In this document: positions 3,790 through 37,793 of the stretch, piece by piece
Position numbering within the stretch: the stretch's first letter is position 1
Layout of the letters: each line of letters starts with the position of its first letter
Assembly (NCBI GenBank): GCA_032718475.1
Contig: JAUCBJ010000072.1
Location: 1-37,819, forward strand
Source: Nemertoderma westbladi
Taxonomy: Eukaryota; Animalia; Xenacoelomorpha
Direction: 5' to 3'
DNA: 37,819 bases
The notes under the pieces: model-generated
Database searches by the model: none
The model's input: the letters and a program-made list of their open reading frames with translations, nothing else
Told to the model about the DNA's origin: nothing
Translations under genes and position numbers: made by a program

Positions 3790-3845
3790 GGGTAAATCTT
3801 TTCGACCTACGCGTAGGCCTACGCGTAGGTCGAAAAGATTTACCC
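3790..3845. repeat. 56-bp perfect palindrome with no spacer
   Basis: GGGTAAATCTTTTCGACCTACGCGTAGG|CCTACGCGTAGGTCGAAAAGATTTACCC. Confidence 0.97.
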
Positions 3846-3887
3846 CTAAAATAAGACCATACGGTAGGTTCAATAAACAACCCACAA

Positions 3888-5190: not shown

Positions 5191-5324
5191 ACTATGAGAT
5201 AGAATTCCATATGCGCCTGTGGTAAAAGACTCTAAATTTAATAGTTTGTGGTTGTTGTCGATAATCGATTACCACATGACGTAGCAAAACACTCATTTTA
5301 TAGCCAAAAACAATTACCAATTGA

Positions 5325-5916
5325 TGGAAAGGATGAGCAGGTTAAGGCCGGATTTTCTAACCAAAACAATAAACAGTCACTTTACCAAATCAGGGAAAGG
5401 AGCAGGTTACAGAGGCGGGATTTTCTAACCAAAACAATAAACGATCATTTAACTAATTGAGGGAAAGGAGCAGGTTACAGAGACGGGATTTTCTAACGAA
5501 AACAATAAACGATAACATTACCAATTGAGAGAAAGGAGCAGGTTACAGATGCGGGATTTTCTAACCAAAACAATAAACAGTCACTTTACCAAATCAGGGA
5601 AAGGAGCAGGTTACAGAGACGGGATTTTCTAACCAAAACAATAAACGATAACATTACCAATTGAGAGAAAGGAGCAGGTTACAGAGTCGGGATTTCCTAA
5701 CCAAAACAATAAACGATCACTTAATTAATTGAGGGAAAGGGGCAGGTTACAGAGGCGGGATTTTCTAACCAAAACAATAAACAGTCACTTTACAAAATGA
5801 AGTAAAGGAGCAGGTTACAGAGGCGGGTCTTTCTAACCAAAACAATAAACGGTCACTTTACCAAATCAGGCAAAGGAGCAGGTTACAGATGAGGCGGGAT
5901 TTTCTAACCAAAACAA
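5325..5916. repeat. About 68-bp tandem repeat, 8-9 copies
   Basis: Recurrent GAAAGGAGCAGGTTACAGAGGCGGGATTTTCTAACCAAAACAATAAAC. Confidence 0.93.
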
Positions 5917-6231: not shown

Positions 6232-7878
6232 CTTTAGATCCCAGAGCACCTTAGATCCTGAACGAACTTAGATCTTGGGTGAACTTAGATCCTTCCCATA
6301 CGAACTTAGATCCTTCCCATACGAACTTAGATCCTTCCCATACGAACTTAGATCCTTCCCATACGAACTTAGATCCTTCCCATACGAACTTAGATCCTTC
6401 CCATACGAACTTAGATCCTTCCCATACGACCTAAGATCCTTCCCATACGAACTTAGATCCTTTACTATACGAACTTAGATCCATCCCATACGAACTTAGA
6501 TCCTTCCCATACGAACTTAGATCCTTCCCATACGAACTTAGATCCTTCCCATACGAACTTAGATCCTTCCCATACGAACTTAGATCCTTCCCATACGAAC
6601 TTAGATCCTTCCCATACGACCTAAGATCCTTCCCATACGAACTTAGATCCTTTACTATACGAACTTAGATCCATCCCATACGAACTTAGATCCTTTCCCA
6701 TACGAACTTAGATCCTTTCCCATACGAACTTAGATCCTTACTGTAAATATTATCACGCTTGAAGGGAAGCGAACTTAGATCCTACCACCAATACATTGCA
6801 ACAAATTAGCTATTAATTTGCAAATTATAGTTTGTAAGCGAGTCACTGATCCCAACAACTTGAGTGTATGATCATTAGAAGTATTTTGTATATGCTTAAT
6901 ATGCCTACAGTAATTGTCATGAACGGGAGGTTGGTTTCTTGGAATATTCTTCCAGATCGTTTGAACCGCCCATGATCAGATTTAAAACTCAATAATATAA
7001 TTATATCTTTCTCTACAGTAATTTAATAATTGACTTATTATTTACAAAAGGACACAAAGAATGTTACAGCAACAATTAATAACAATATCACCATCACCTC
7101 ACTAACACTAATGTCTTCCTATTATTGTATTACGGAACTAATTGACCTTTTTAATTAGGACGATCAGCAGGAGCATTTCTTTAAAATAAAGAGGTTATTC
7201 TAATAGCGTTGAACAAACATAAGATAGTTAATAATATAGACAATACTGTATGTATATCAATAATATAATATATAAGTTGAGATCAACAACAGTAACTGTA
7301 CTACAGTATATATGAACATTAACTAACATTAAATTATGAACGAAATCAAACTTTATTTCCCTTCACTTGAATATATTTTATGACAATAATATTGTATAAT
7401 AAGTATCAAATCAAATTCATCTCTCATTCTGTCATTCTCAGTATAATAATAATAACTATAGGGTCTAAACTTTTAAGGCGTACTAAAAAGGACCATGATG
7501 TGCCATGATGGTGGCCGAGTGGATCTAGGTGAACTTAGATCCTAAGGATTTAAGTTCACCTAGTTAGGATCTAAGTTCACCTAGTTAGGATCTAAGTTCA
7601 CAGAGTTAGGATCTAAGTTCACCTAGTTAGGATCTAAGTTCACCGAGTTAGGATCTAAGTTCACCTAGTTAGGATCTAAGTTCACCTAGTTAGGATCTAA
7701 GTTCACCGAGTTAGGATCTAAGTTCACCTAGCTAGGATCTAAGTTCACCTAGTTAGGATCTAAGTTCACCTAGTTGGGATCTAAGTTCACCTAGTTAGGA
7801 TCTAAGTTCACCCAGATAGGATCTATGTTCGCAAAGATCTAAGTTCATCAAAGTCAGGCCTTGAAGGATCTAAGTTCG
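6232..7878. mobile_element. Foldback-like element with two inverted 21-bp arrays
   Basis: Left array (GAACTTAGATCCTTCCCATAC)n at about 6281-6738; right array (GGATCTAAGTTCACCTAGTTA)n at about 7521-7878. They share the core GAACTTAGATCC in opposite orientation around an AT-rich spacer. No TSD found. Confidence 0.65.
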
Positions 7879-9065: not shown

Positions 9066-9275
9066 TCAAATTGTTTTCGCGTTATTATATGCGGCTTTAA
9101 CTCCCCCATCATAGGTTGTATCTGTATAAGAAAATCGTTCAAAGTATGGTTGTTCTAGAATATCGTCGAGTGCGCCGGTTGGCGGGGTTAGCTGCACTGG
9201 TTCACCGGTAAAATCATCGTCAAAGTAGCGGACATCTAAAGCTGACGCCAGCCGAGGAATAAATGGAGGTGTAAC
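9066..9275 (-). CDS. AKT: AKT last coding exon: AGC C-terminal tail
   Basis: tttaatag|GTT. VTPPFIPRLASALDVRYFDDDFTGEPVQLTPPTGALDDILEQPYFERFSYTDTTYDGGVKAAYNNAKTI*, with turn motif TPP and hydrophobic motif FERFSY. Confidence 0.95.
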   Translation of the reverse strand, partial: VTPPFIPRLASALDVRYFDDDFTGEPVQLTPPTGALDDILEQPYFERFSYTDTTYDGGVKAAYNNAKTI

Positions 9276-9483: not shown

Positions 9484-12400
9484 ATGATCTGGAGTGAGAA
9501 TAATGATCTGGGAGTGAGTATAATGATCTGGGAGTGAGAATAATGATCTGGGAGTGAGAATATTGATCTGGAATGATAATAATGATCTGGGTGTGAGTAT
9601 ATTGATCTGGAAGTGAGAATAATGATCTGGGAGTGAGAATAATAAATCTAGAAGCGAGAATAATGATCTAGGAGTGAGAATAATGATCTGGGAATGATAA
9701 TGATGATCTGGGAGTGAGTATAATGATCTAGGGAGTGAGAATAATATCTGGGAGTTAGTATAATGATCTGGGAGTGAGAATAATGATCTGAGAGTGAGAA
9801 TAATGATCTGGGAGTGATAATAATGATCTGGGATTGATAATAATGATCTGGAAGTGAGTATAATGGTCTGGGAGTGAGTATAACGATTTGGGAGTGAGAA
9901 TAATGATCTGAGAGTGAGAATAATGATCAAGGAGTTAGAATAATGATCTGGGATTGAGAGTAATGATCTGGGAGTGAGTATAATGATCTGGTAGTGTGTA
10001 AATGATGTGGGAGTGAGTAAATGATCTGGGAGTGAGAATAATGATCTGGGAGTGAGAATAATGATCTGGTAGTGAGAATAATTATCTGGGAGTGAGTATG
10101 ATCCGGGAGTGAATATAATGATCTGGGAGTGAGAATAATTATCTGGGAGTGAGTATGATCCGGGTGTGAGAATAATGATCTGGGAGTGAGAGTAATGATC
10201 TGAGAGTGAGTAAATGATATGTGGGTGAGAATAATTATCTGGGTGTGAATATAATGATCTGGGAGTGAGTATAATGATCTGGGAGTAAGTAAATGATCTG
10301 GAAGGAGTGCGTATAATGATCTGGGGGTGAGTATAATGATCTGGAAGTGAATATAATAATCTGGGAGTGAGAATAATGATCTGGGAGTGAGAATAATGAT
10401 GTGGGAGTGAGAATAATGACCTGGGAGTGAGAATAATGATCTGTGAGTGAATATAATGATATGGGAGTGAGAATAATGATATGGGAGTGAGACTATTGAC
10501 ATGGGAGTGAGAATAATGATCTGGGAGTGAATATAATGATCTTTGAGTGAGAATAATGATCTTGGAGTGAGAATAATGATCTGAGAGTGAGTGAGAATAA
10601 TGATCTGGGAGTGAGAATAATCACATGGGAGTGAGAATAATGATCTGGGAGTGAATATAATAATCTGGGAGTGAGAATAATGACATGGGAGGGAGTGAGA
10701 ATATTGGCCAGGGAGTAAAAATAATGATCTGGGAGTGAGTATAATGATCTGAGAGTGAGAATAATGACCTGGGATTGATAATAATGATCTGGGTGTGAGA
10801 ATAATGATCTGGGATTAAGAATAATGATCTGGTACTGAATGGATGATCTGTGAGTGAGAGCAATGATCTGGGTGTGAGAATAGTGATCTGGGAGTGAGAA
10901 TAATGACCTGGGAGTTAATATAATGATCTGGAAGTAAGAATAATGATCTGGGAGTGAGTAAATGATCTGTGTGTGAGAATAATGATCTGGGAGTGAGAAT
11001 AATGATCTGGGAGTGGAATAATTATCTGGGAGTGATAATAATGATCTGAGAGTGAGAATAATGATCTAGGAGTGATAATAATGATCTGGGAGTGAGTATA
11101 ATAATATGGGAGTGATAATGATGATTTGGGAGTGAGTATAATGATCTGGGTGTTAGAATAATGATCTGGGAGTGGGTATAATGATCTGGTAGTGAGAATA
11201 ATGATCTGGGAGCGAGTATAATGATCTGGGAGTCAGAATAATGACCTGGAAGTGAGAATAATGATCTGGGAGTGAATATACTGATCTGGGAGTGAATATA
11301 ATGATCTTGAAGTAAGAATAATGATCTGGGAGTGAGTAAATGATCTATGTGTGAGAATAAAGATCTGGGAGTGAGAATAATGATCTGGGAGTGGAATAAT
11401 TATCTGGGAGTGATAATAATGATATGAGAGTTAGAATAATGACATGGGAGGGAGTGAGAATATTGACCTGGGAGTGATAATAATGATCTGGGAGCGAGTA
11501 TAACGAGCTGGGAGTGAGAATAATGATCTGCGATTGAGAATAATGATCTGGGTGTGAGAATAATGATCTGGGATTGAGAATAATGATTTGGGAGTGAGAA
11601 TAATGATCTGGGAGTGAATATAATGATCTGGAAGTAAGAATAATGATCTGGGAGTGAGTAAATGATCCAGGAGTGATAATAATGATCAGGGAGTGAGTAA
11701 ATGATCTATGTGTGAGAATAAAGATCTGGGAGTGAGAATAATGATCTGGGAGTGAGTAAATGATCTATGTGTGAGAATAAAGATCTGGGAGTGAGAATAA
11801 TGATCTGGGAGTGGAATAATTATCTGGGAGTAATAATAATGATCTGAGAGTGAGAATAATGATCCAGGAGTGATAATAATGATCAGGGAGTGAGTATAAT
11901 GATATGGGAGTGAGAATGATGATCTGGGAGTGAGTATACTGATCTGGGAGTAAGTATAATGATCTGGGAGTGAGTATAATGATCTGGGTGTTAGAATAAT
12001 GATCTGGGAGTGGGTATAATGATCTGGTAGTGAGAATAATGATTTGGGAGTGGGTATTATGATCTGGTAGTGAGAATAATGATCTGGTAGTGAGTGGATG
12101 ATCTGGGAGTGAGAGCAATGATCTGGGAGGAGTGAGTATAATGATCTGGGAGTGAGTGGGAGTGAGTATAATGATCTGGAAGTGAATATAATAATCTGGG
12201 AGTGAGATTAATGATCTGGGAGTGAGAATAATGATGTGGGAGTGAGAATAACGACCTGGGAGTGAGAATAATGACATGGGAGTGTGCATATTGACCTGGG
12301 AGTGATAATAATGATCTGGGAGTGAATATAATGATCTGGGAGTGAGAATAATAACATGTGAGGAAGTGAGAATATTGACCCGGGAGTGAGAATAATGATC

Positions 12401-12877
12401 TGGGAGTGAGTATAGTGATCTGTGAGTGATAATAATTATATGGGAGTGAGTAAATGATCTGGAGTGAGAATAATAATCTGGGAGTGAGAATAATGATCTG
12501 GGAGTGAGAATAATGACCTTGGAGTGAGAATAATGATCTTGGAGTGAATATACTGATCTGGGAGTAAGAATAATGACATGGGATTGAGAATGTTGACCTG
12601 GGAGTGAGAATAATGATCTGGGAGTGAATATAATGATCTAGGAGTGATAATAATGGCATGGGAGGGAGTGAGAATATTGATCTGGGAGTGAGAATAATGA
12701 TCTGGGAGTGAGTATAATGATCTGGGAGTGAGAATATTGATCTGGGATTGAGAATAATGATCTGGGTGTGAGAATAATGATCTGGGATTGAGAATAATGA
12801 TCTGGTAGTGAGTGGATGATCTGGGAGTGAGAGCAATGATCTGGGAGTGAGAATAATTATCTGGGTGTGAGAATAAT
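9484..12877. repeat. 20-bp minisatellite (about 170 copies) filling the last AKT intron
   Basis: Unit ATGATCTGGGAGTGAGAATA with point variants; starts about 15 nt after the donor at 12892. Confidence 0.97.
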
Positions 12878-12892
12878 ATTGAAACATATTAC

Positions 12893-12980
12893 CTTTTTTT
12901 GTTCGACGAGATTGAAGTCCATAGGGAGAAAGAACGGGTGCATCTTTACCTCGTCAGCGTCTTGAACACTTCCACCCAAT
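12893..12980 (-). CDS. AKT: AKT exon: end of kinase domain
   Basis: ttctacag|A...|gtaata, 88 nt. (R)LGGSVQDADEVKMHPFFLPMDFNLVEQKK. Confidence 0.95.
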
Positions 12981-13550: not shown

Positions 13551-13771
13551 CTCTCCTCGGGGTTCTTCACCAATAGCCGGACGCAAACATTCCGCGCGTT
13601 CTGGGATATCCGACTTGACCGGGGGAATTCGAGCTTTCCTGTTGCGATCAGGTCGTATAGAACATCGTGGTTCCTGTCGTAGAATGGTAGACGTCCGCAC
13701 AGCATCTCGTAAATAACAACGCCTACGCCCCACCAGTCTACCGCGCGTCCGTAGTCGTTCTCCTCAAGTAC
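13551..13771 (-). CDS. AKT: AKT exon: kinase C-lobe
   Basis: ctctatag|...|gtgagt, 221 nt. VLEENDYGRAVDWWGVGVVIYEMLCGRLPFYDRNHDVLYDLIATGKLEFPRSSRISQNARNVCVRLLVKNPEE(R). Confidence 0.97.
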
Positions 13772-19140: not shown

Positions 19141-20005
19141 ATATATTACAACCGGTTCCATATACCATGTGTCTGAGTGTCAAACAAAGTACCGTACCGA
19201 TAGTCAAAAAGATTTTAATTTAAAATAATTTTTATTGAAAGTATAAGAATGCGATATTATTAATTTATATTTTTCGAAATGATTTTTTTTATTATTTTAG
19301 GCCGCCGTGTTTTGCGGTATATTAAAAAACGTAGGATGAAAATAAATAAGTGTACACTCGAAATATATATCGTATATCCTTGATACACTTGTCTGTGGCC
19401 AAAGTTTTCAGTCGGTGTTAGGTGTTCGTGTTCGGTTTTTTCCATTAAATGAACAATATTGATGATAACAGAAAAACGATTAGATTTTTATTTTTACATA
19501 CTTTTTTTATTACATGAGTTCTTGATTATTTTTTTTTACTGATGACTGGGGCACTGGGGGTGAGGCAATGTTCAGAGTTCTCTCTAGCCACAGATAGTCA
19601 AACCATATAGCAACCACTTCTTACTAAATTTATATTAAATTTAGCGCCATCAAGTGATTCTACGTCAAAAGGTCTACAGGTAAAAAAAACAAAGGGACCA
19701 CTTTGTTTTTGTGGTTAAAGAGTCCGCACTAAAATGTTAAAAATCAATAATTAAGCTATTCCCTATTAGTATTATATTGGCTATGTTATTTGTGTTATTG
19801 AAATGTGAACCTAACGCGATAACGTTGGTAATGCTATTAAACCTATTATGACTGAGTAAAAGTAAAAAAGTGATCGATGAACGTGTGAAACACGAAACAC
19901 CGGAGGTAACCCAAAGGGCGCTCTCTCTTGGCTGTTACCTATAAGGCAGTGACACTAACGCCCAGGGTGTACACTCAGTATCCAACATTTTTGCTTTACT
20001 CCCCC

Positions 20006-21781
20006 TACTACTACTAGTATCGGCATGCTGCATTGCAGCTGCATTTTTAAGAATGCTGTGCCGGCTTGTAGACAAAATTGCGCCGCCACAACTCCCTATC
20101 ACCCATGACATTTGCTAGATCATCCGCATCTTCAAGGCCAGTGTCCTTTAAGATGCGTCTCAAGAAAGTCATGGGCTGTCCACCATGCTTATTCACTCCA
20201 TGAGGCTGCCAAAGTACAAGATTATGCACTGGCTGGTCCTCACGGCGAAAGCAATGTCCTGCAAAGCGGAGGCGATTTTGTTCTAGTGTCAAGCTTGGGG
20301 GAACCAATGAGACCTCCAATGTTATATAGTGTCTGGTTGGAGATGTGTGCATTGTACTTGACACAATGAACCCGGCGTAGCATTCTTGTGAATGTGCCAT
20401 CCAGAGATTTGGTGTCCTCAGCAGTTAGAGCCCAGCATGGACTCCCATAGAGGAGTACTGGAACTACTGCTGCTCTAAATAATCGGACCTTAAGTTTCCG
20501 ATTAATTCTCGGTGACTTCCAAATCCTGGAAAGCCTATTCAAGGCTGCCCATGCCTTACCCTTACGTATTCGAAGGTCCTCACCTAACTTCCGGATCCAT
20601 GATCCCAGGCAACAGAAATCGTCCACATGCTCAAGCATACCATCGTTTGAGCTTATGCTCATCCGATCAGAGACTTGCTGAGAACTTTCAAAGTTAACTG
20701 TCAAAATTTTGGTCTTTCTGGAGTTAATAAAAAGACCAACACTAGAAGCAGCATGTTCTAATGAGCTGAAGAGCCGTTGGGCTCCCTCTAGTGATTCTGA
20801 GAGTATTCCTAAGTCATCGGCAAAGTCTAGATCAGTTAGGTACTTGGCAGGATTTCCTCGACTTCTGGATCCAGAAGGTGGAGTTATCATCACCCCATCA
20901 TGATCTAAGGACATGCGTAGAACATAGTCAACCACAATTATGAACAAGAATGGTGCATGTGTGTCTCCCTGGAGGACGCCCCATAACACTTCAAATGGTT
21001 CTGTGTCACCATCAACAGTAAACACAAACGTTGTCGAACCATCGTATACTGATCTGATTGCTGCAATAATTTCATCAGGAATCCCATATAATGAAAGTAT
21101 GCTGAACATACGAGAGCGCGGGATACTGAATCAAAGGCCTTGAAGAAGTCAACAAAGATAACAGCCAGATGCCTGTCCTTCTTTTTTGATAACTCTTCAA
21201 TTATCCTTCTAAGTGCCAAAATGGGTTTACGGAACCCATTCTGATTTCCACGGAGCAGTCTCTCAATGGGATCCCTGGTGCGATTTAATAGAATTCTATT
21301 GTTTAGCTTTGCAGCAATCGAGATCAATGAGATTCCCCGAAAAGAACAATAGAGTGTTAGGTTGCCTTTCTTGGGAACTGGCACCAACTTATTTGTTTTC
21401 ATTTCTTGTGGGACTCTTGTTGTTCGGTACATGTCTACTATGATGGGATAGATGAGCTTTAAACACTCAGGTATTTTAAAGACCTCAGGGGGGAACACCA
21501 TCTACTCCACTGGCACGATTGGTCGTAATGCTCTTTGCAGCAGCCTTCACTTCTGCAAAGGAGATATCGCCAATGGGAATATCTGGGAGTACAGACTCAG
21601 ACACTTTTACTTCTATAAAGTTATCAGGCAATACCCTGTCATTATTGAAGAGCTTTTCAAAGTGGGCCTTCCAACCATTGGGGCGATCGTCTGGTGATTC
21701 AGCCTTAACCTTGGTGGTTGGTTGGCTTTTCCGCCCAGTAAGCAAGTTGATCGATCGTATTCCAGCTATCAGATAGATTTC
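20006..21781 (-). mobile_element. 5'-truncated, frameshifted non-LTR retrotransposon (RTE-like) with target-site duplication
   Basis: RT motifs FVDFFKAFDSV, GVLQGD..PFLF and DFADDL; C-terminal RLRFAGHCFR; (TAG)n 3' tail; 12-bp TSD CTTTACTCCCCC at 19994-20005 and 21782-21793. Confidence 0.92.
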
Positions 21782-22155
21782 CTTTACTCCCCCAGCAGCT
21801 GTCGGGGGACCTAAGACAACAATGACTGATACAACCTTATTCATTTCTGGCTCTGGCTGTTCAATTAATATTTATATCTCACAAATAGAACATTCATAGA
21901 ACATTCCTGATTAGAGTTTACATTGAAATAAATTAGCAAGACCCTTAATGGTAGTCAATGGTTAGGAGGAGCCTATTTCATAAATATTCATTGGGTTCAT
22001 TCCAGAATAATGTGTTTATTTATGTAATATTTGATGAACCGCAGCAGTAGTAGCATAAGCAGGATTAAGTATAAGGACATTAAATATCGACTTATTCGTA
22101 TACTTTGTACAAATCTAGATTTGGGACCGGTATTTATTTATTAGTATTGGTATTG

Positions 22156-23580
22156 TCGTAGGTTGGCACTGCCGGAGTATAGGTCGGCGAGGGTAGGGGC
22201 CCGTAGGTTGGCACTGACGGAGTATAGGACGGTGCCGGTGAGGGTAGGGGCCCGTAGGATGGCACTGCCGGAGTATAGGGCGGTGAGGGTAGGGACCCGT
22301 AGGTTGGCACTGCCGGAGTATAGGTCGGTGAGGGTAGGGGGCCGTAGGTTGGCACTGCCGGAGTATAGGTCGGTGAGGGTAGGGGGCCGTAGGTTGGCAC
22401 TGCCGGAGTATAGGTCAGTGAGGGTAGAGGCCCGTAGGTTGGCACTGCCGGAGTATAGGTCGGTGAGGGTAGGGGCCCGTAGGTTGGCACTGCCGGTGTA
22501 TAGGTCGGTGAGGGTAGGGGCACGTAGGTTGGCACTGCCGGAGTATAGGACGGTGAGGGTAGGGGCCCGTAGGTTGGCACTGCCGGAGTATAGGTCGGTG
22601 AGGGTAGGGGCCCGTAGGTTGGCACTGCCGGAGTATAGGTCGGTGAGGGTAGGGGCCCGTAGGTTGGCACTGCCGGAGTATAGGTCGGTGAGGGTAGGGG
22701 CCCGTAGGTTGGCACTGCCGGAGTATAGGACGATGAGGGTAGGGGCCCGTAGGTTGGCACTGCCGGAGTATAGGTCGGTGAGGGTAGGGGCACGTAGGTT
22801 GGCACTGCCGGAGTATAGGACGGTGAGGGTAGGGGCCCGTAGGTTGGCACTGCCGGAGTATAGGTCGGTGAGGGTAGGGGCCCGTAGGTTGGCACTGCCG
22901 GAGTATAGGTCGGTGAGGGTAGGGGCCCGTAGGATGGCACTGCCGGGGTATAGGTCGGTGAGGGTAGGGGCCCGTAGGTTGGCACTGCCGGAGTATAGGT
23001 CGGTGAGGGTAGGGGCCCGTAGGTTGGCACTGCCGGAGTATAGGTCGGTGAAGGTAGGGGCCTGTAGGTTGGCACTGCCGGAGTATAGGTCGGTGAGGGT
23101 AGGGGGCCGTAGGTTGGCACTGCCGGGGTATAGGTCGGTGAGGGCAGGGGCCCGTAGGTTGTCACTGCCGGAGTATAGGTCGGTGAGGGTAGGGGGCCGT
23201 AGGTTGGCACTGCCGGAGTATAGGTCGGTGAGGGTAGGGGCCCGTAGGTTGGCACTGCCGGAGTATAGGTCGGTGAGGGTAGGGGCCCGTAGGTTGGCAC
23301 TGCCGGGGTATAGGTCGGTGAGGGTAGGGGCCCGTAGGTTGGCACTGCCGGGGTATAGGTCGGTGAGGGTTGGGGCCCGTAGGTTGGCACTGCCGGAGTA
23401 TAGGTCGGTGAGGGTAGGGGCCCGTAGGTTGGCACTGCCGGAGTATAGGTCGGTGAGGGTAGGGGCCCGTAGGTTGTCACTGCCGGAGTATAGGTCGGTG
23501 AGGGTTGGGGCCTGTAGGTTGGCACTGCCGGAGTATAGGTCGGTGAGGGTAGGGGCCCGTAGGTTTGCACTGCCGGAGCT
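22156..23580. repeat. 45-bp GC-rich minisatellite (about 31 copies), open on both strands
   Basis: Unit GGCACTGCCGGAGTATAGGTCGGTGAGGGTAGGGGCCCGTAGGTT; the minus frame gives ([15 protein letters not shown])n. Confidence 0.95.
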
Positions 23581-23684
23581 ATAAGCCCGTTTGTTTTAAT
23601 TTAAAATTTTATGTTTACTAATTATTGATTTGATCAATAATTGCGATATTCTAATTTCGATTGCAATAAAATTATAACTATTTA

Positions 23685-24520: not shown

Positions 24521-25787
24521 TAAAACATATATATTTTTGCCTGGCTTCCCTTTTACATCAAGGATATACCAGCATTTTAATATTATATTCTAATCTTATA
24601 TTAATAAACTAACAAGAGTCTAAGGTTATAGAACAGAATGGGATATAATATAACAAAACAATAATACAACAAACATTTTTTATATTGTTCCCGTCGAGTG
24701 TTAGTGTATTTTTAGTATTAGTGTAATTTTAAGATAAAATAAAAAAAATTTCACAAGGGAAAAAGTAATTATTATTGAAAATGGACGCAAATCCCATCTT
24801 GGCGAATTAACATCCCGCCTCAATGTTAAATTCTCAATTTAGGAAAAGGAGCAGGTTACAGTGGCACGTTATTTTAACCAAAACAATAAACTAAACACAA
24901 TAGAACAGGTTACAGTTTTATTTTTGAGAGTAATCATCTGTTATTTGCGTCGAATTTCCCCTGGAGAGGGATTAATTTTTATTGCGTCGAAAGACCCCTC
25001 CCCTATCTGACGCACTGAATCCATTAATTATGTTAAAAGAAAGCCTTGGCTAGCATAAGATCAATTAAATTGTTCTAGGAAACATTTTGTATATTATGAA
25101 AAACAGATATAAATGGATAGGCCCTGCTGTATGGTTGTAATAAAATAAAAATTCCCGATCCCTGAAATTATAAATGCCGATTCCGTTGCAACATTATAAT
25201 ACGATACGATATGATTATCTTTATTATGCCTCTAGCACGCTATTCATTTATAATACGTAATTGTTATCGTTTCAGTTTGACTCTGGGCTGCATTGTCTAG
25301 CGAGTAGCCAGTATGTAAGCCAGTATGTCATTAAGAATAAAGGGTTACCATACCATATGCTGTGCGCATAATAAACCTCTTTATTAATTATTATACGCGT
25401 ACTAACGAGTATTATAGTAAATAAGATACTGAACACCAAACGTTTGGCTAGGAAACTATTATTAACTGCTAACACAACATTGGCACACTAGCTAAAAGGG
25501 AGCAATAAATATTGATTATTATTATTTTTCGGGTGTGAAATATTGAAAGTATAGGATTCCGTCTGAGAAACCGTCTCGTAAACTAGGAAGCGTGAACGGT
25601 TGTAATTCATTAATATTGTAAACAACAGCTAGCCGTATTTAATTATTTGTTGTAACCTTAGGAACATAGGATAAGGCCTGTGGTTTACGTAACTCAGGTC
25701 ATTGGACGATAATAAATTATCACGTCCGAGATGAGTCGTAGTAAATATATATTGTAGCAGCGTAGTAAATAGTATAGCAACCTATTA

Positions 25788-25857: not shown

Positions 25858-26081
25858 AATTAATAGCTGCAGCGTAGTAGATGTATAGTAAAAGTGGAAT
25901 ATATGGAAGCAAAAGTAATTAATAGTAGAATAATAGATGTATAGGATAATAATAGATAATGTAGCAACACAATGGTACATATTGCGGTCAATTTGCGCCA
26001 CTATCTCTGGCAACATGACAGTATATAGTACAGCCTCGTAATCAAGATACCAGCCGCTATCCAAAACTACATTATTTTGCA

Positions 26082-27467
26082 ATGATATATGATAAACTAG
26101 ATGCCAAGGTTACCAAACCGAGACCAAGATATACGCTTACGCAATGGTTTATAGGAGCGTCGTTGTTGGCTTCCCAAGGAGCACCGGCATTATTCTACAC
26201 AATACCCCAACCTTTCTTCCCGTTGGTCGCTACACAACGGAGATGGAGTCACTCCCTGATTGGTGCGTTGTACAGTCTGGTCGCGGTAGTCCGTATCCTT
26301 AGCTACTGCGCGCTGGGCAGCCGTATAAGCCGACTCAGCAATGCTCTTAGCATCGGGGCTTTAGGGGGGACGTCCGCGGTTTCCGTGATGTTATTTGGAT
26401 TAGCGAGTTTTATAACCAACGAATGGGCCTTCGTGGTGGCGTGTTTCTCGCTGCGCGTCGTCGAGGCTGTTGGGCTAACGGCCGCTCATCTCGCCACTTA
26501 CGGTTTACTCACCCAAATATTCCGCTCCCACAGGGCTCTGGTTATAGGCGCTGCCATAGCAACCGCGCACGTAGGCAGGTGTCTGGGTCCCTCTGTGAGT
26601 GCGGTGCTGTACGATACGGGAGGCTTCTACCTTCCTTTCGTTACCTTCGGGGCGGCCCACTGCTTGGTCTGTGGCGTCAGCGCATTCATTGCACCAAGCA
26701 TAGACCAACCCACTAAATTAGTAAAAGCTGCTTCATTGACTGGACTGTATAAGAACTACATTTGTCTGCTATCGGCGTATCTACAAGTTACTTTCAATAT
26801 CGCTATGGGATTTTACGCGTCGAATTTCGCTCTCCATTTGCGGAACGACTACGCCGTGCAAGTGCAATACATCGGGCTGGTGTTTCTAATTCCGCCTTTT
26901 TTCAACTGTCTCGTCGGTTTGTTGGTAAGCGTTTCGCTCCATCGCTCCCGCAGACTGAACCCCGCTTGCGTAATGCTCGGTGGCGCCGTCTCATTGGCCC
27001 TTGCTATGCAACTGTTCGGGCCTACCGGTCTGCCTCCCAATCTCCCCACCGTTCTCATTGGTTCCGCCCTCTTTGGTCTTTCCGGCGGACTCATTTTCAC
27101 ACCCAGCTTCGAGACTCAGTCCCGCGTCGCTTTGCGTTCCATGCGATGGGCCAACGACGCTACGACTAACGCCGTAGTCAGCGCCGCCTTCCGTATAAAC
27201 AGCAACGCTGGGCTGATTATCGGCCCAGTTTTGGGTTCGGTTATCACTCAGTATATCAACTTTAGTACAGCCGCCTCCATACTCAGTATCACCATCGTTC
27301 CAGTTATTGTGGGTCTTTTAATTTTTATTATTCAAGGCGACAGCGATGTCTTGGGATTGGTCGACAATAGGCAATACAGTAAAATACCGCTAGATGACAA
27401 TATTGATGACGTCATACATCCCAACAGTGGCGCTGTAGACAGTGACTCGAGTGTTAACCAATTATAG
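26082..27467 (+). CDS. MFS transporter, SLC18B1-like; intronless, nested antisense in an AKT intron
   Basis: 461-aa intact ORF with about 12 hydrophobic segments. CFSLRVVEAVG and LGPSVSAVLYDTGGFYLPF resemble SLC18B1/VMAT-family MFS motifs. GC content is higher than the flanks. Confidence 0.88.
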   Translation: MIYDKLDAKVTKPRPRYTLTQWFIGASLLASQGAPALFYTIPQPFFPLVATQRRWSHSLIGALYSLVAVVRILSYCALGSRISRLSNALSIGALGGTSAVSVMLFGLASFITNEWAFVVACFSLRVVEAVGLTAAHLATYGLLTQIFRSHRALVIGAAIATAHVGRCLGPSVSAVLYDTGGFYLPFVTFGAAHCLVCGVSAFIAPSIDQPTKLVKAASLTGLYKNYICLLSAYLQVTFNIAMGFYASNFALHLRNDYAVQVQYIGLVFLIPPFFNCLVGLLVSVSLHRSRRLNPACVMLGGAVSLALAMQLFGPTGLPPNLPTVLIGSALFGLSGGLIFTPSFETQSRVALRSMRWANDATTNAVVSAAFRINSNAGLIIGPVLGSVITQYINFSTAASILSITIVPVIVGLLIFIIQGDSDVLGLVDNRQYSKIPLDDNIDDVIHPNSGAVDSDSSVNQL

Positions 27468-28660
27468 TCGTTTTGGGGGTAGACAGTTGTCAGACACAAA
27501 CAAAATTCATTCCTCACCAGGGGAAAATCGATGCAGATAAATGCTGCGGTTACTCGCAAAAAGAAACTACTGTAACCTGTGCTATTACCTTTCATTTATC
27601 GTTTTGGTTAGACTAATATGCTACTTTAACCTGCTCCTTTCCCATGGCCAGTGTTAATTGGCCGAGGCGAGACATTAATCCTGCCAGGTGGAGGTGGGAT
27701 TCGTGTCATTATTCACTCATATAATATGTTGTTGTTATAATATAAATTGTTTAAAAGATTAAACATCATGTTATCGTATAACTGAATATTAATAGGGTCT
27801 CCAGACTAGTGTTTAAACGGGGATAGGGACCTGGATTGTATTTTTTATTGTAAGAATATGTGGCGGGTTTTGGGTATCACTCACTTTATCTTACACTTCT
27901 GAAATATTTGTAAGATAAAGTTTTTTTTAATTATTTTGAAATTGATTACTCTACTGGATGGCTTATTACTGACATGTTATATATTCGATATAATAAAAAA
28001 CATTTATGTTCTGCTGCAACTATTTATCAGATATTAAACAAATTGATTTCACTATTATTTATACTTCGGGATCGCGTTCCAAAAAAGTTGGGATCGGGAC
28101 CGGGATTACATTTTTCGCCGGGATCCCGGTATTGCGCCATAATCTTGCTACTTGGAGTATCTGTAACCTAAACAAACTATATTCTTAAAGCCAAATTTTC
28201 AGCATATTAAGGTACTAAATTTGGACTCCTGCTTATATTTTTTAAGTTTTTATTCCAAAATTGTAACATTACTCAACGCGATTAGTATTAATAACAGCGA
28301 ATTGTAATTTAACACTTAACAACTTTAGAGGACATTACGTCATTGTATTGGCCTGTTTTGGTGTAGTAATGTCCCGACGGCGATCTGTAAAGTGACGGCG
28401 TCATTGGTTACCACGTAAACAATAGTTGACTATTTATTATTAATTGCCTGACAGCCAGATAGGCCTTCTGCATTAACTGCCGGTAGCTATTAATAACCAG
28501 TAGCTGTAAACTATTAAAATTGTTCCAAATGCCACCATAAATATAAGCTAACTTTTTTATAACATACAATTAATGTAATTTTTACATTTATTTATAACGC
28601 AACTAATTTAATTTGTGCAGTTTCTATCTCTTATAATATAATATATATACAATCATTTCG

Positions 28661-29657: not shown

Positions 29658-29846
<189 letters not shown>

Positions 29847-29924: not shown

Positions 29925-31000
29925 CTACTACTACTACTATCGTCATGTTGCATTATATATATATATCATATTAATAAAAAATGCTGAGCCGCTTTTGACA
30001 AAATTGCGCCGCTACAACTCACTATCACCCATGACATTTGCTAGATCATCCGCATCTTCAAAGCCAGTGTCCTTTTTTAAGATGCGCCCCAAGAATGTAA
30101 TGGGCTGTCCACCATGCTTATTCACTCCGTGAGGCCGCCATAGCACAAGATTATGCACTGGCTGGTCCTCACGGCGAAAGCAATGTCCTGCAAGGCTGAC
30201 GTGGCTCCGTTCAAGTTTCAAGCTTGGTGAGACTAATGAAAGACCTCCAATGTTAACGTGTGATTGGAGCTGTGTTTATTGTACTACACAGAGAACACGG
30301 CGTAGCACTCTTGTATAAATGCCATCCAGAGATTAGATTTAGTATTCTCTGCAGTTAGAGCCCAGGCTATATAGGAATACAGGCAGACTATTCAATGATG
30401 CCCATGCCTTCCCCCAAAGTATCCGAAGGTCTTCACCTGACTTCGAGATCCATGATCCTATGTAGCAGAAGTCATCCACATGCTCAAGCAAGCCATCCGT
30501 GAAGCTTATCTCCTTACGATCAGGCATTTGTTGACTGCTGTCAAAGTTCACTGTAAAAATTATTTTTAAATCATCTTATTGTTAATTAATTCCTCTTTGT
30601 AAAAAATCGTTTTGGAGTTTACTAAAATACCAAAACTAGAAGCAGCCTGCTCCAATGAGCAGAAGAGCCCTTGGTCACCCTCTAGTGATTCTGACAGTAC
30701 CTCTAAAACAGCAAAGTCTAGATCAGTAAAAGGTAATTAATTGACTTGGATTTCCTCCAGTGACTGCAGTACTTCTAGTACCTGTGAATGGGGGGGGGGG
30801 GGGGGGGGGGGGGTATTACCATCACCCCAACTTTAGATAGTCTAATAATAAGCACATGCATAAAACATACCAACCAAATTTATGAATAAGAATGGTGCAA
30901 GTTTCTCCGTGAAGGACTCCCCATAAGACTTCGAATGGATCTGTGTCACCATCAGCAGTAAATAGTCACACGTGTTGTAAGACCATCGAACATATCTATT
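29925..31000 (-). mobile_element. Second, more decayed copy of the same RTE-like LINE
   Basis: Collinear with about 20006-21050 (AGHCFRREDQPVHNLVLW; LEHVDDFC), same (TAG)n tail, with deletions and a poly-G insertion. Confidence 0.88.
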
Positions 31001-31160: not shown

Positions 31161-31182
31161 CAATTTATTACAACAAACTTGC

Positions 31183-31295
31183 CTGTAAACAATATTAAGT
31201 TTGTGCAAGTATCCCAAAGCGCACACGATCTCGGCCCCATAGAAACGGGCCTTGTCCTCTGAGAAAAACTTCGCTCTCGTTAGATGGAAAAACAA
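31183..31295 (-). CDS. AKT: AKT exon: alphaD-alphaE up to the catalytic loop; GC donor
   Basis: ctttctag|, 113 nt. [37 protein letters not shown](R). Donor CAG|gcaagt, phase 2, matches the next exon. Confidence 0.95.
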
Positions 31296-31430
31296 CTAGA
31301 AAGACAAAGAGATTACAATTAATTGATTTTAAATAATATATAAATATATACGGGTCGTTTTGTATTGAAGGAATCCCAAGAAGGTATCTTTGGTCGTATT
31401 CCGTATGACTTTCCTTACAATGTACAATAC

Positions 31431-34400
31431 TATTCCTACCTCGCCACTGTTATACAGTATTCCGACCTCGCCACCGTTACAGCATTCCTACCTCACTACC
31501 GTTACAGTATTCCGACCTCGCCACCGTTACAGTATTCCCACCTCGCCACCCTTACAGTATTCCTACCTCGCCACTGTTACAGTATTCCTACCTCGCCACC
31601 GTTACAGTATTCCTACCTCGCCACCGTTACAGTATTCCTACCTCGCCACCGTTACAGTATTCCTTCCTCGCCACTGCTACAGTATTCCTACCTCGCCACT
31701 GTTACAGTATTCCCACCTCGGCACCGTTACAGTATTCCTACCTCGCCACCGTTACAGCATTCCTACCTCGCCACTGTTACAGTATTCCTACCTCGGCACC
31801 ATTACAGTATTCCTACTCCGCCCCGCCACCGTTACAGTATTCCTACTTCGCCACTGTTACAGTATTCCCACCTCGGCACCGTTACAGTATTCCTACCTCA
31901 CCACCGTTACAGTATTCCTGCCTCGCCACCGTTACAGTATTCCTACCTCGCCACCGTTACAGTATTCCTACCCGCCCCGCCACAGTTACAGTATTCCTAC
32001 CCCGTCCCGCCACCGTTACAGTATTACTACCTCGCCACCATTACAGTATTCCAACCTCGCCATTGTTACAGTATTCCTACCTCGCCACAGTTACAGTATT
32101 CCTACCCCGCCCCACCACCGTTACAGTATTCCTACCTCGCCACCGTTACAGTATTCCCACCTCGCCACCGTTACAGTATTCCTACCTCGCCACTGTTACA
32201 ATATTCCTACCTCGCCACTGTTACAGTATTCCTACCTCGCCACCGTTACAGTGTTCCTACCTCGCCACCATTACAGTATTCCTACCTCGCCACTGTTACA
32301 GTATTCCTACCTCGCCACTGTTACAGTATTCCCACCTCGGCACCATTACAGTATTCCTACCTCGCCACCGTTACAGTATTCCTACCTCGCCACTGTTACA
32401 GTATTCCCACCTCGGCACCGTTACAGTATTCCTACCTCGCCACCGTTACAGTATTCCTACCTCGCCACCGTTATACAGTATTCCTACCTCGCCACCGTTA
32501 TAGCATTCCTACCTCGCCACCGTTACAGTATTCCGACCTCGCTACCGTTACAGTATTCCCACCTCGCCACCGTTACAGTATGCCTACCTCGCCACCGTTA
32601 TACAGTATTCCTACCTCGCCACCGTTACAGCATTCCTACCTCGCCACCGTTATACAGTATTCCTACCTCGCCACCGTTACAGTATTCCTACCTCGCCACC
32701 GTTACAGCATTCCTACCTCGCCACCGTTATACAGTATTCCCACCTCGCCACCGTTACAGCATTCCCACCTCGCCACCTTTGCAGTATTCCTACCTCGCCA
32801 CCGTTACAGTATTCCTACCTCGCCACCGTTACAGTATTCCTACCTCGCCACCGTTACAGCATTCCTACCTCGCCACCGTTATACAGTATTCCCACCTCGC
32901 CACCGTTACAGCATTCCCACCTCGCCACCGTTGCAGTATTCTTACCTCGCCACCGTTACAGTATTCCTACCTCGCCACCATTACAGTATTCCTACCTCGC
33001 CACTGTTCAGTATTCCTACCCCGCCCCGCCACCGTTACAGTATTCCTACCTCACCACTGTTGCAGTATTCCCACCTCGGCACCGTTACAGTATTCCTACC
33101 TCGCCACCGTTACAGTATTCCTACCTCGCCACCGTTATAGTATTCCTACCTCGCCACCGTTACAGTATTCCTACCTCGCCACCGTTACAGTATTCCTACC
33201 CCGCCCCACCACCGTTACAGTAGTCCTACCTCGCCACCGTTATAGTATTCCTACCTCACCACCGTTACAGTATTCCTACCTCGCCACCGTTACAGTATTC
33301 CTACCTCGCCACAGTTATATTATTCCTACCTCGCCACCGTTACAGTATTCCTACCTCGCCACCGTTACAGTATTTCTACCTCGCCACCGTTACAGTATTC
33401 CTACCTCGCCACCGTTACAGTATTCCCACCTCGTCACCGTTACAGTATTCCTACCTCGCCACCGTTACTGTATTCCCACCTCGCCACCGTTACAGTATTC
33501 CTACCTCGCCACAGTTACAGTATTCCTACCCCGCCCCGCCACCGTTACAGTATTACTACCTCGCCACCGTTTCAGTATTCCAACCTCGCCACCGTTACAG
33601 TATTCCCACCTCGCCACCGTTACAGTATTCCTACCTCGCCACCGTTACAGTATTCCTACCTCGCCACCGTTACAGTATTCCTACCTAGCCACTGTTACAG
33701 TATTCCCACCTCGTCACCGTTAAAGTATTCCTACCTCGCCACCGTTACAGTATTCCTACCTCGCCACCGTTACTGTATTCCCACCTCGCCACCGTTACAG
33801 TATTCATACCTCGCCACAGTTACAGTTTTCCTACCCCGCCCCGCCACCGTTACAGTATTCCGACCTCGCCACCGTTACAGTATTACTACCTCGCCACCGT
33901 TACAGTATTCCTACCTCGCGACCGTTACAGTGTTCCAACCTCGCCACCGCACCGTTACAGTATTCCTACCTCGCCACCGTTACAGTATTCCTACCTCGCC
34001 ACCGTTACAGTATTACTACCTCGCCACCGTTACAGTATTCCGACCTCGCCACCGTTAAAGTATTACTACCTCACCACCGTTACAGTATTCCAACCTCGCC
34101 ACCGTTATAGTATTCCGACCTCGCCACCGTCACAGTATTACTACCTTGCCACCGTTACAGTATTCCTACCTCTCCACCGTTACAGTATTACTACCTCGCC
34201 ACCGTTACAGTATTCCGACCTCGCCACCGTTACAGTATTACTACCTCGCCACCGTTACAGTATTCCAACCTCGCCACCGTTACAGTATTCCTACCTCGCC
34301 ACCATTACAGTATTACTACCTCGCCACCGTTACAGTATTTCTACCTCGCCACCGTTACAGTATTACTACCTCGCCACCGTTACAGTATTCTGACCTCGTA

Positions 34401-36631
34401 ATCATTACAGTATTACTACCTCGCCAACGTTACAGTATTACTACCTCGCCACCGTTACAGTATTCCAACCTCGCCACAGTTTTAGTATTCCGACCTCGCC
34501 ACCGTTACAGTATTCCTACCTCGCCACCGTTACAGTATTTCTACCTCGCCACCGTTGCAGTATTCCAACCTCGCCTCCGTTACAGTATTACTACCTCGCC
34601 ACCATTACATTATTACAACCTCGCCACTGTTACAGTATTCCCACCTCGCCACCGTTACAGTATTACTACCTCGCCACCGTTACAGTATTCCTACATCGGC
34701 ACCGTTACAGTATTCCTCCCTCGCAACCGTTACAGTATTTTTACGTCGCCACGCCACTATTACAGTATTCCTACCTCGCTACCGTTACAGTATTCTTACC
34801 CCGCCCCGCCACCATTACAGTATTCCTACCTCGCCACCGTTACAGTATTCATACCTCGCCACCGTTACAGTATTCATACCTCGCCACCGTTACAGTATTC
34901 ATACCTCGCCACCGTTACAGTATTCCTACCTAGCCACTGTTACAGTATTCCCACCTCGTCACCGTTACAGTATTCCTACCTCGCCACCGTTACAGTATTC
35001 CTACCTCGCCACCGTTACTGTATTCCCACCTCGCCACCGTTACAGTATTCATACCTCGCTACAGTTACAGTTTTCCTACCCCGCCCCGCCACCGTTACAG
35101 TATTCCGACCTCGCCACCGTTACAGTATTACTACCTCGCCACCGTTACAGTATTCAAACCTCGCCATCGTTACAGTATTCCGACCTCGACACCGTTACAG
35201 TATTACTATCTCGCCACCGTTACAGTATTATTACCTCGCGACCGTTACAGTGTTCCAACCTCGCCACCGCACCGTTACAGTATTCCTACCTCGCCACCGT
35301 TACAGTATTCCTACCTCACCACCGTTACAGTATTACTACCTCGCCACCGTTACAGTATTCCGACCTCGCCACCGTTAAAGTATTACTACCTCACCACCGT
35401 TACAGTATTCCAACCTCGCCACCGTTATAGTATTCCGACCTCGCCACCGTCACAGTATTACTACCTTGCCACCGTTACAGTATTCCTACCTCTCCACCGT
35501 TACAGTATTACTACCTCGCCACCGTTACAGTATTCCGACCTCGCCACCGTTACAGTATTACTACCTCGCCACCGTTACAGTATTCCAACCTCGCCACCGT
35601 TACAGTATTCCTACCTCGCCACCATTACAGTATTACTACCTCGCCACCGTTACAGTATTTCTACCTCGCCACCGTTACAGTATTACTACCTCGCCACCGT
35701 TACAGTATTCTGACCTCGTAATCATTACAGTATTACTACCTCGCCAACGTTACAGTATTACTACCTCGCCACCGTTACAGTATTCCAACCTCGCCACAGT
35801 TTTAGTATTCCGACCTCGCCACCGTTACAGTATTCCTACCTCGCCACCGTTACAGTATTACTACCTCGCCACCGTTGCAGTATTCCAACCTCGCCTCCGT
35901 TACAGTATTACTACCTCGCCACCATTACATTATTACAACCTCGCCACTGTTACAGTATTCCCACCTCGCCACCGTTACAGTATTACTACCTCGCCACCGT
36001 TACAGTATTCCTACATCGGCACCGTTACAGTATTCCTCCCTCGCCACCGTTACAGTATTTTTACGTCGCCACGCCACTATTACAGTATTCCTACCTCGCT
36101 ACCGTTACAGTATTCTTACCCCGCCCCGCCACCATTACAGTATTCCTACCTCGCCACCGTTACAGTATTCATACCTCGCCACCGTTACAGTATTCATACC
36201 TCGCCACCGTTACAGTATTCATACCTCGCCACCGTTACAGTATTCCTACCTCGCCACCGTTACAGTATTCCTACCTCGCCACCGTTACAGTATTCCTACA
36301 TCGGCACCGTTACAGTATTCCTACCCCGCCACCGTTACAGTATTTTTACGTCGCCACACCACCGTTACAGTATTCCTACCTCGCCACCGTTACAGTATTC
36401 CTACCCCGCCCCGCCACCGTTACAGTATTCCTACCTCGCCACTGTTACATTATTCCTACCCCGCCACCGTTACAGTATTCCTACCTCGCCACAGTTACAG
36501 TATTCATACCTCGCCACCGTTACAGTATTCATACCTCGCCACCGTTACAGAATTCATACCTCGCCACCGTTACAGAATTCATACCTCGCCACCGTTACAG
36601 TATTCCTACCTCGCCACCGTTACAGTATTCC
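31431..36631 (-). repeat. 25-bp minisatellite (about 200 copies) derived from the AKT exon/donor junction
   Basis: Plus-strand unit TATTCCTACCTCGCCACCGTTACAG; runs without a break into the exon at 36610-36631. Confidence 0.97.
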
Positions 36632-36744
36632 ATAACGAAACAAAGTCTGTCTTTTGTTTGGAAGGAGCATCTCAACTCGGTTAGGAAGGGATGTTTAGTA
36701 ACTTGTAGAACGCGACTCTCGGAACGTAAATGGTCGACTTCGTT
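36610..36744 (-). CDS. AKT: AKT exon: alphaC helix to hinge
   Basis: ctttcag|...|gtagga, 135 nt. [45 protein letters not shown]. The last 21 nt are the first unit of the 25-bp satellite. Confidence 0.96.
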
Positions 36745-37061
36745 CTGAAAGTAAAGTTAGTTGTTATCGCGAGGAACGAGAGACGCTCATCGCAATGAAA
36801 TGAAAGTGATCCCAAGTGAAAATGAGCGCATCAGCAAAATAAAAACATTCAATCGCTAAAGCATTTTGAATAGCACTATTATTAACTGGAACGTTTCACA
36901 CCTTACGATGGCATGAAGAAAGTCTTGAATTGCAAAAGAGTAGAGGCTTCAACTAAATGTAGGTGGCAAGAAAATATACAGTAGGCCTACAAATTTCTAG
37001 AAAGTAGAAGTTTAAGGGCAAGAAAATAATATAAAAATTAGAATAGACTCACAGTCCTTAC

Positions 37062-37193
37062 CTTTTGAAGTATAACTTCCTTGCGAAGTATTTTTATCGC
37101 GAATATTTCGCCTGTCTCCTTTTCCTTGCAGAGAAGAACCTTTCCAAAGGTTCCTTTACCTAAAACTTTGATCATATCATAATCATCCAATTT
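37062..37193 (-). CDS. AKT: AKT exon: kinase Gly-rich loop and catalytic Lys
   Basis: ggtttag|...|gtaagg, 132 nt. [44 protein letters not shown]; LGKGTFGKV is typical of AKT. Confidence 0.97.
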
Positions 37194-37684
37194 CTAAACC
37201 AAAAAAAAAAAAAATATATATACTGTGTGGTGGGGAACTGTAACTGGAGATAAAACTGATAAACTTATTTTTCATGAAAATTCACCAAAAGAGGTTGTTT
37301 TGCATCTTGCAATCTTAAAATGACTTTATGTTGGTTAGAAAATGGAACAAATCGTAGTTGGCCTACCGGCACCGGTTCATGCTAAAATTATTGAACCGCT
37401 TTTTGAATTATTGCTCAATTTATCTGATATGTAAAAAGGCACTACCAACACTATAAAATACTGTTGAAAAGTATCAGCAACCAGTAAAACAACCCATACA
37501 TCACGCAACCAATGCAGGATATCATTGTGTAATATGTAGCAACAGACACCCCCCCCCCCCCCCCCCCCCCCTCCTGGCTAAACCACAAACATTTAATTTA
37601 ATTTTATTTTAGTTTTTCTGGAAACCACCCTTTTACGTGCGTGTTGTTCTGACGCTCCCCAGTATATTACTGTATAAGACAGAC

Positions 37685-37793
37685 CTTGGAGCAACCTCGC
37701 CTGCTCATCGATGCATACCATTGGCTTTGCGACTGCAGTTCGCTCGCTCTAACAGAAGCAGCAACTTCTTCAATTGCTTTCACCCAATCTTCT
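37685..37793 (-). CDS. AKT: AKT/PKB exon: C-terminal helix of PH domain plus linker (upstream exons lie outside the window)
   Basis: Acceptor tatttcag|A. Translates (R)EDWVKAIEEVAASVRASELQSQSQWYASMSRRGCSK, similar to AKT1 REEWTTAIQTVA. Donor AAG|gtctgt chosen because it is the phase-0 option required by the next exon. Confidence 0.8.

Follow-up and report, generated by a model that had tools for sequence, protein, structure and literature searches.

In a 37,819-nucleotide stretch of the Nemertoderma westbladi genome (GenBank assembly GCA_032718475.1, contig JAUCBJ010000072.1, positions 1 to 37,819, hereafter the window), we found a 25-bp minisatellite lying across the end of a kinase-domain exon of an AKT-like gene, where the authentic 5' splice site is followed by 203 further copies of the repeat unit. 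With a probability of roughly 0.8, we interpret this array as an intronic minisatellite that spans an exon-intron boundary, was born by slippage and is carried as a tolerated passenger, the first donor being the one used by the spliceosome.

The structure of the array was established by two approaches. Tandem Repeats Finder (TRF) returned a single array at 31431-36631 with a period of 25, 204.2 copies, 86% matches and a score of 7606, and unit-by-unit parsing gave 204 units, the first of which (36630-36606) is the real exon end together with its donor. On the gene strand the unit is GAATACTGTAACGGTGGCGAG|GTAG, where the bar marks the exon end, and its exonic part reads EYCNGGE in the exon 36744-36610. 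A first, sequence-only reading of this DNA had described about 200 tandem 25-bp units, made of the last seven exon codons (EYCNGGE) and the first four intron bases and derived by amplification of the exon end with its donor; the parsing bears this out, unit 1 spanning the true boundary. The same reading had described many identical copies and others varying just after the GT, most of them with the GT kept, and this also agrees with our counts: unit 1 recurs unchanged in 43 of the 203 extra units, the GT is retained in 198 of 203, the nine-base donor GAG|GTAGGA is found unchanged in 77 of 203, and the five variants it had listed are all present among the 204 units (GTAGTA in 25, GTGGGA in 21, GTCGGA in 14, GTATGA in 12 and GTTGGA in 12). 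Substitutions amount to about 5% per base across the 203 further units, and transitions of the CpG type show some enrichment (37 at 4 sites versus 79 at 21), although these counts are not independent and no methylation is claimed from them. Within the window, the 25-bp unit is confined to the AKT array. The array also contains a higher-order duplication, a block of 1.3 kb whose two copies align with 1239 matches, 6 mismatches and one 75-bp gap. The array was rejected as coding sequence on the gene strand, where no open stretch exceeds 47 codons; in antisense it has stop-free frames of up to 763 codons, a consequence of the letters of the unit. Masking of the donor copies by RNA structure was rejected as well (z of 0.20 for the exon end plus six units).

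The proposal that the spliceosome faces about 200 near-equivalent donors goes too far. Using U1-duplex energy, a crude score, we found that 115 of the 203 extra donors are at most 0.4 kcal/mol from the true donor or better (two are better), whereas 88 of 203 are clearly weaker, by at least 1.7 kcal/mol. The units closest to the exon, units 2 to 5, all present a G>T substitution at position +4. Among real donors, +4 T and +4 G are roughly equally common, so these four units may not be weaker than the others.

The donor in use was identified on a contig of 2203 nt and a depth of 192 from run X4, which is another sample, labelled 'DNA?'. In this contig the exons E1, E2, E3 and E4 (numbered as in Table 1) are joined at canonical sites: letters 723-857 of the record correspond to E2 up to 36610, letters 858-970 to E3 from 31295, and the start of E4 follows. 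None of the runs listed for the gene is recorded as RNA; we took the contig as RNA-derived because it skips the introns and no intron cover accompanies it. The locus is transcribed, and in the assembled mRNA it is the first donor that is used; the length of the contig and its 0.87 share of the 3' query agree with canonical splicing of the later introns too. For runs X1 to X7, contigs were compared at two flank stretches, 36530-37250 and 31165-31540, each including about 100 bp of the array. The spliced contig is the sole X4 contig on 36530-37250, and on 31165-31540 one further X4 contig turned out to be a chance match of 35 letters that lies outside the array. On these two stretches no array-bearing X4 contig was found, contigs being prone to drop rare forms, and with the same limit no X4 contig presented a skipped E3 or an exon extended to a later donor. 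A joint from 31295 to 31517, considered as use of donor 201, was rejected, since the same contig enters unique E2 sequence (loose end at 36632). No contig on the stretches compared came from run X5 or from runs X6 and X7, which belong to two other organisms; this is no proof of absence. These data confirmed several points predicted from the letters: the donor GAG|GTAGGA at 36609 and the acceptor at 31296/31295 were both correctly placed, the locus is transcribed, and the first donor is productive, the contig joining 36610 to 31295. A choice of the first donor by position, as in exon definition, is the best explanation among those put forward.

Use of a distal donor would truncate the protein. 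Reading through the first donor gives VGIL followed by a stop (TAA at intron +13..+15), and every exon extension made by a distal donor contains this TAA, including the 66 of 203 that have an in-frame length; the claim that any distal donor truncates the protein is therefore right. Exon E2 measures 135 nt with the first donor and would measure 160-310 nt with the donors of units 2-8, and use of donor 2 leads to a stop at codon 93 of 345, with five junctions downstream of it. We propose that the spliceosome would pair the E2 acceptor with the first donor met, through scanning or exon definition. By analogy with the F7 minigenes described below, the distal copies may be functional but out-competed, the donor that is nearest to the acceptor of the exon and transcribed first being the winner. 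Rare leaks, mostly to unit 2, would be cleared by nonsense-mediated decay (NMD). With a stop in every extension and leaks removed by NMD, the array would be cheap to carry.

Several points weigh against this interpretation. The RNA evidence consists of one assembled contig from one run, in which rare forms are dropped; NMD would hide the products of distal donors, and the X4 individual may not carry the array. The data on scanning were obtained in mammalian cells, with only a few copies, and would carry over to this animal by analogy. An array may also matter in another way than through its own donors: in human ABCA7, skipping of the downstream exon rose with the length of the array, according to the part of the report available (De Roeck et al. 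2018, PMC5954066). The remaining points concern the distribution of substitutions, which we analyzed by permutation tests on 25-nt units with at most 6 differences from the consensus (177 of 203 units, or 133 of 154 when the duplicated block was left out) and on three other arrays of the window as controls (138 of 167, 30 of 31 and 17 of 22 units). Donor positions +3..+5 collected 97 of 230 substitutions (p 0.023 when tested by position, p 0.001 when tested by allele; 0.071 and 0.006, respectively, without the duplicated block), and clustering of this type was absent from the three other arrays (p 0.17-0.97). The AG|GT core was slightly under-mutated (p 0.048, or 0.075 without the block), and intact donors represent 24 of 115 units in the half near the exon versus 53 of 88 in the far half. 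The clustering at +3..+5 and the rarity of intact donors in the near half could mean selection on splicing.

A reading in which such selection shapes the array, keeping AG|GT while +3..+5 pairing, or the TAG that might act as acceptor of an in-frame micro-exon, is lost near the exon, and in which the array acts as a U1 decoy or rheostat, seems to us improbable. The clustering on which it draws involves seven different alleles that were amplified and is not found in the controls, but the units descend from one another and the window of three bases was chosen post hoc, so that the amplification of a few mutations could explain it; chance amplification of a few early mutations gives the same picture. 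When all nine donor positions were considered, change was not in excess (p 0.15, and 0.22 without the block), and conservation of the GT versus the other unit positions was not significant (p 0.16 for all units, 0.20 without the block). The +4 G>T change shared by units 2-5 recalls the title of a paper on CBS, according to which a substitution carried by the second repeat keeps alternate splicing from taking place, and 83 of 203 units formally present an AG, an in-frame micro-exon (the 21-nt EYCNGGE) and a GT; the array, however, has no pyrimidine tract for internal acceptors. Variants destroying the GT, which would be the best silencers, have not spread (5 of 203), and a loss of competitors corresponds to purging, not to a decoy function. 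If selection did act, purging of competing donors or of a TAG acceptor-like motif would be simpler than a decoy role. The specific version of a selection-tuned field of U1 decoys, in which copy number and unit mix would set the share of AKT pre-mRNA diverted to NMD, has in our estimate a similarly small chance of being right. For the tuned poison or U1-decoy array suggested from the sequence, no positive evidence emerged, given the GT conservation values above (p 0.16-0.20) and the fact that, in the available text on ABCA7, use of the second-unit donor was independent of length (PMC5954066). If the selection-tuned version were true, it would constitute a heritable and fast-mutating dial on insulin/PI3K signalling.

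The stepwise re-splicing suggested at the outset found no support either. Recursive splicing would remove the intron step by step through the AG|GT motifs of the units, and intact units each have such a motif together with a branch-like TGTAAC. However, upstream of the 357 AGs of the array the pyrimidine fraction never exceeds 0.50, and at none of them does it reach that of the weakest true acceptor (0.67-0.89 for the seven true acceptors). In addition, GAG is the poorest acceptor triplet and the AG preceding the GT in the units is precisely a GAG, and known recursive sites sit in much longer introns. We therefore give this mechanism hardly any credence.

Another possibility, unlikely but to be taken more seriously, is that the array is not silent and lowers the amount of functional AKT mRNA as its length increases, which would make it a deleterious or quantitative-trait allele acting via leaks to nearby donors or via skipping of E3. 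The precedent is again ABCA7, for which both exon-19 skipping and lower expression follow the length of the repeat in the part of the study available to us, although retention of one unit does not depend on length there (PMC5954066). In the genes 6-16 and CBS, two pseudo-sites are used besides the true site, as reported in the accessible text of another study (PMC1557585). On the side of the AKT gene itself, E3 has 113 nt, which shifts the frame when it is skipped, and ends in a weak GC donor; its skipping leads to a stop at codon 107, to be compared with codon 93 after use of donor 2. The lack of any skipped or extended contig in X4 speaks against such an effect, weakly since only contigs were compared. 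Preferring the passenger interpretation, we would attach greater weight to the array only if its copy number or the +3..+5 variants were shown to alter AKT output.

The existence of the array was verified on read-derived contigs. Four runs match the 3' end of the gene and three of them (X1, X2 and X3) may be the source of the window itself. Contigs from these three runs carry many unit variants; one X1 contig passes from the unique 3' flank into the last units of the array without differences, and a loose contig end matches interior variant units at 34615 and 35935. The summed contig depth over the units is far above that of the flank (up to 1123 versus 4 in X3 and up to 618 versus 18 in X1), an excess which is not a copy number but agrees with a high-copy array. 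The array is no invention of the assembly, its length and the 1.3-kb block being those given by the assembly. We judge it very improbable that the array is much shorter in the genome and that the block duplication, or more, arose by mis-assembly of two haplotypes. The two blocks are 99.5% alike, and the contigs are short with none spanning the array, but the blocks differ by 6 substitutions and by a 75-bp gap of whole units, interior variants and high depth are both found in the read-derived contigs, and about 150 units remain after removal of the block.

The flanks of the array suggest how it may have been born. The hexamer GGAATA brackets it as a direct repeat and occurs again at intron +4..+9, 25 bp from the exonic copy. 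Slippage between these two hexamers 25 bp apart would have seeded a 25-bp duplication in an intron of 144 nt, and the array would then have grown by slippage and unequal exchange, with variants spreading locally. The one-unit intron of 144 nt would have kept its own pyrimidine tract and acceptor, which indicates that the intron was there before the array and was enlarged by it; human AKT1 presumably has its own intron at this codon. Gain of an intron through tandem duplication of a proto-splice site, considered as another candidate, does not describe this locus, the acceptor lying in 135 bp of unique sequence after the array. The proposed birth is close to the model of Haber and Louis 1998, as described in part in PMC3389668, in which minisatellites arise between direct repeats of 5-20 bp: the AKT array is likewise flanked by a short direct repeat, of 6 bp. 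Unlike in that model, the direct repeats straddle a splice donor, and the ancestral unexpanded allele was not observed here. Seven arrays occupy 30% of the window, and the AKT gene contains two further kb-scale intronic minisatellites. In a gene so rich in minisatellites, no particular cause has to be sought for an array that reaches an exon end, and 25-bp seeds in short introns would often touch one.

The window contains the 3' part of the AKT-like gene, whose seven exons E1-E7 on the minus strand join into one open frame of 345 codons encoding the kinase domain and the C-terminal tail (Table 1). The best PDB match of E2 by phmmer was AKT1/AKT2 (E 8e-16), followed by the PKC family (2e-10), and a homologue search gave 3 matches out of 1793 candidates, with 55-58% identity. 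Directly after E3 comes a GC-AG intron (CAG|GCAAGT, 31182-29827, minus strand), which is spliced in the X4 contig. Upstream of E1, in the stretch 37719-37685 (minus strand), the exon ending the PH domain requires a donor near 37685 (AAG|GTCTGT, located by eye) to stay in frame with the kinase exon; a stronger-looking GTATGC at 37718 is out of frame. The frame-keeping donor implies a short linker between the PH and kinase domains.

Table 1. Positions of the array, its flanking repeats, the splice signals and the AKT exons in the window
Feature	Position	Strand	Remark
25-bp minisatellite with 204 units and a final 6-bp GGAATA; unit of 21 exon bases plus GTAG	31431..36631	-	
Higher-order duplication within the array: units 16-67 (1320 bp) recur as units 68-116 (1245 bp)	33681..36245	-	
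Exonic GGAATA, upstream copy of the 6-bp direct repeat on either side of the array	36626..36631	-	
GGAATA after the last unit, downstream copy; unique intron beyond	31431..31436	-	
True 5' splice site GAG|GTAGGA; the intron begins at 36609	36604..36612	-	X4 contig leaves at 36610
Unique 3' portion of the intron, including the pyrimidine tract and the AG acceptor	31296..31430	-	X1 contig covers it without differences
AKT exon E1 (GKGTFG lobe)	37062..37193	-	317-nt intron 3' of E1 spliced out in the X4 contig
AKT kinase exon E2 (NEVDH...EYCNGGE, 135 nt); last 21 bases in unit 1	36610..36744	-	
AKT exon E3 (LFFHL...IVY, 113 nt), ending in a GC donor	31183..31295	-	
AKT exon E4 (DLKLEN...GTPEYLAPE)	29688..29826	-	
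AKT exon E5	13551..13771	-	55% identity to a protein named RAC-alpha kinase
AKT exon E6	12893..12980	-	
Last coding exon E7 (LTPP and FERFSY motifs, stop)	9066..9275	-	

Other repeats and genes share the window with the array. The intron between E6 and E7 harbors a 20-bp minisatellite of 170 copies (9484-12877, minus strand), which starts 15 nt past the E6 donor and fills 3394 of the 3617 intron bases. On the gene strand it is made of acceptor-like sites, 139 of its 143 AGs having an upstream pyrimidine fraction of at least 0.67 and 138 being YAG, and it does not descend from the true acceptor. Splicing to an acceptor of this array would cut off the AKT tail, possibly without NMD, since no coding exon follows E7. 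A 45-bp minisatellite of 32 copies lies in the long intron (22157-23583) and is stop-free in several frames; one frame of the minus strand reads as a 15-residue repeat over 488 codons, for which there is no coding evidence. A stop-free frame of 482 codons on the plus strand (26019-27467) matches the Pfam family MFS_1 (E 8e-16) and appears to be an intronless transporter gene, possibly a retrogene, antisense within a 15.9-kb AKT intron. Two broken and related reverse-transcriptase copies (20005-21800 and 29925-30990, minus strand; Pfam RVT_1, E 1e-9; 67-81% alike) are also located in AKT introns and likely belong to a non-LTR (long terminal repeat) retrotransposon. Downstream of AKT, three minisatellites were found at 5314-5916, 6281-6739 and 7545-7830, with units of 68, 21 and 21 bp. 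The two 21-mer arrays share GGATCTAAGTTC in opposite orientations, and pieces resembling the 68-mer recur at 24842-24988 and 27493-27643; these shared pieces suggest the ends of a mobile element. Finally, two features were noticed by eye: a candidate inverted repeat at 3840-5220, with about 650 bp per arm and a center near 4530, which the self-BLAST filter did not list, and, also downstream of AKT, what may be the opening coding exon of a further gene (ATG ... GTGAG donor) at about 3410-3278 on the minus strand.

Comparable arrays have been reported in several genes, and the likenesses and differences given here follow the parts of these papers that were available. The closest in scale is a tandem repeat with a variable number of units (VNTR) in intron 18 of human ABCA7, with a 25-bp unit starting with the exon-18 donor GT and about 12-427 units (De Roeck et al. 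2018, PMC5954066); in long reads it presents 11-330 copies, each unit being taken to start with GTGAG (Kaufman et al. 2026, PMC13747324). The idea that no case was described at such a scale must thus be abandoned. The ABCA7 and AKT arrays have in common a 25-bp unit at an exon donor, hundreds of copies and units that vary internally, and in both a donor one unit downstream leads to a premature stop. In ABCA7 the product is subject to NMD, and the isoform retaining one unit is minor and unchanged with VNTR size (PMC5954066). The ABCA7 repeat, however, starts at the GT and is intronic, whereas 21 of the 25 bases of the AKT unit are coding, so that the exonic side of the donor is restored in every copy. 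Variation in length and its consequences for splicing were measured for ABCA7 only, the AKT array being known from one assembly.

A second precedent is the 37-bp VNTR in intron 7 (IVS7) of human F7, whose first monomer lies across the exon-intron boundary (Borensztajn et al. 2006, PMC1557585). Mutation of F7 minigenes showed that the most upstream functional donor wins, being the sole one taken among identical donors, even against sites with a consensus value of 91 (PMC1557585). The same source describes 6-16, with 25 pseudo-sites of which two are used, CBS, with 15-20 units of which two are used, and the lamin B2 and PDGF arrays, in which the true site alone is used (PMC1557585). F7 and AKT are alike in their boundary-spanning first monomer, their donors in tandem and the normal use of the most upstream donor. 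They differ in size, arrays of the F7 type having 5-25 copies versus 203 extra copies in AKT, and in the exonic share of the unit, which is 4 bases in F7. Moreover, the function of the F7 pseudo-sites was examined by mutation in a mammalian system, whereas the AKT copies are known from their sequence. Among invertebrates, 'mirage' minisatellites were described in the Adh3 and globin genes of amphioxus, with splicing apparently undisturbed (Ebner et al. 2010, PMC3087553). These are also tandem duplications of exon-intron boundaries in which many units keep the splice signals, but copies are few in the globin genes (3-6 units in BflGb6), the units reach 160 bp, and length instability was shown there.

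The AKT array possesses the features by which boundary minisatellites are recognized, namely head-to-tail units of 25 bp, a first monomer spanning the boundary, reiterated donors and the first donor in the mRNA (one X4 contig). Literature searches, none of them aimed at AKT, returned no paper on an AKT donor array, and a search for VNTRs in UPF3A, NOC4L and PLIN5 as further precedents gave no result. Our results add a core signalling gene and a further animal lineage to a known oddity of repeats. Behind the true donor stand about 115 others with similar U1 pairing, and the assembled mRNA still takes the first, which makes this locus a usable test of position-based donor choice outside mammals. 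Together, these comparisons place the AKT array as a large instance of the known exon-intron-boundary type of minisatellite, with three traits that set it apart: a mostly coding unit, a high copy number and AKT as the host gene.

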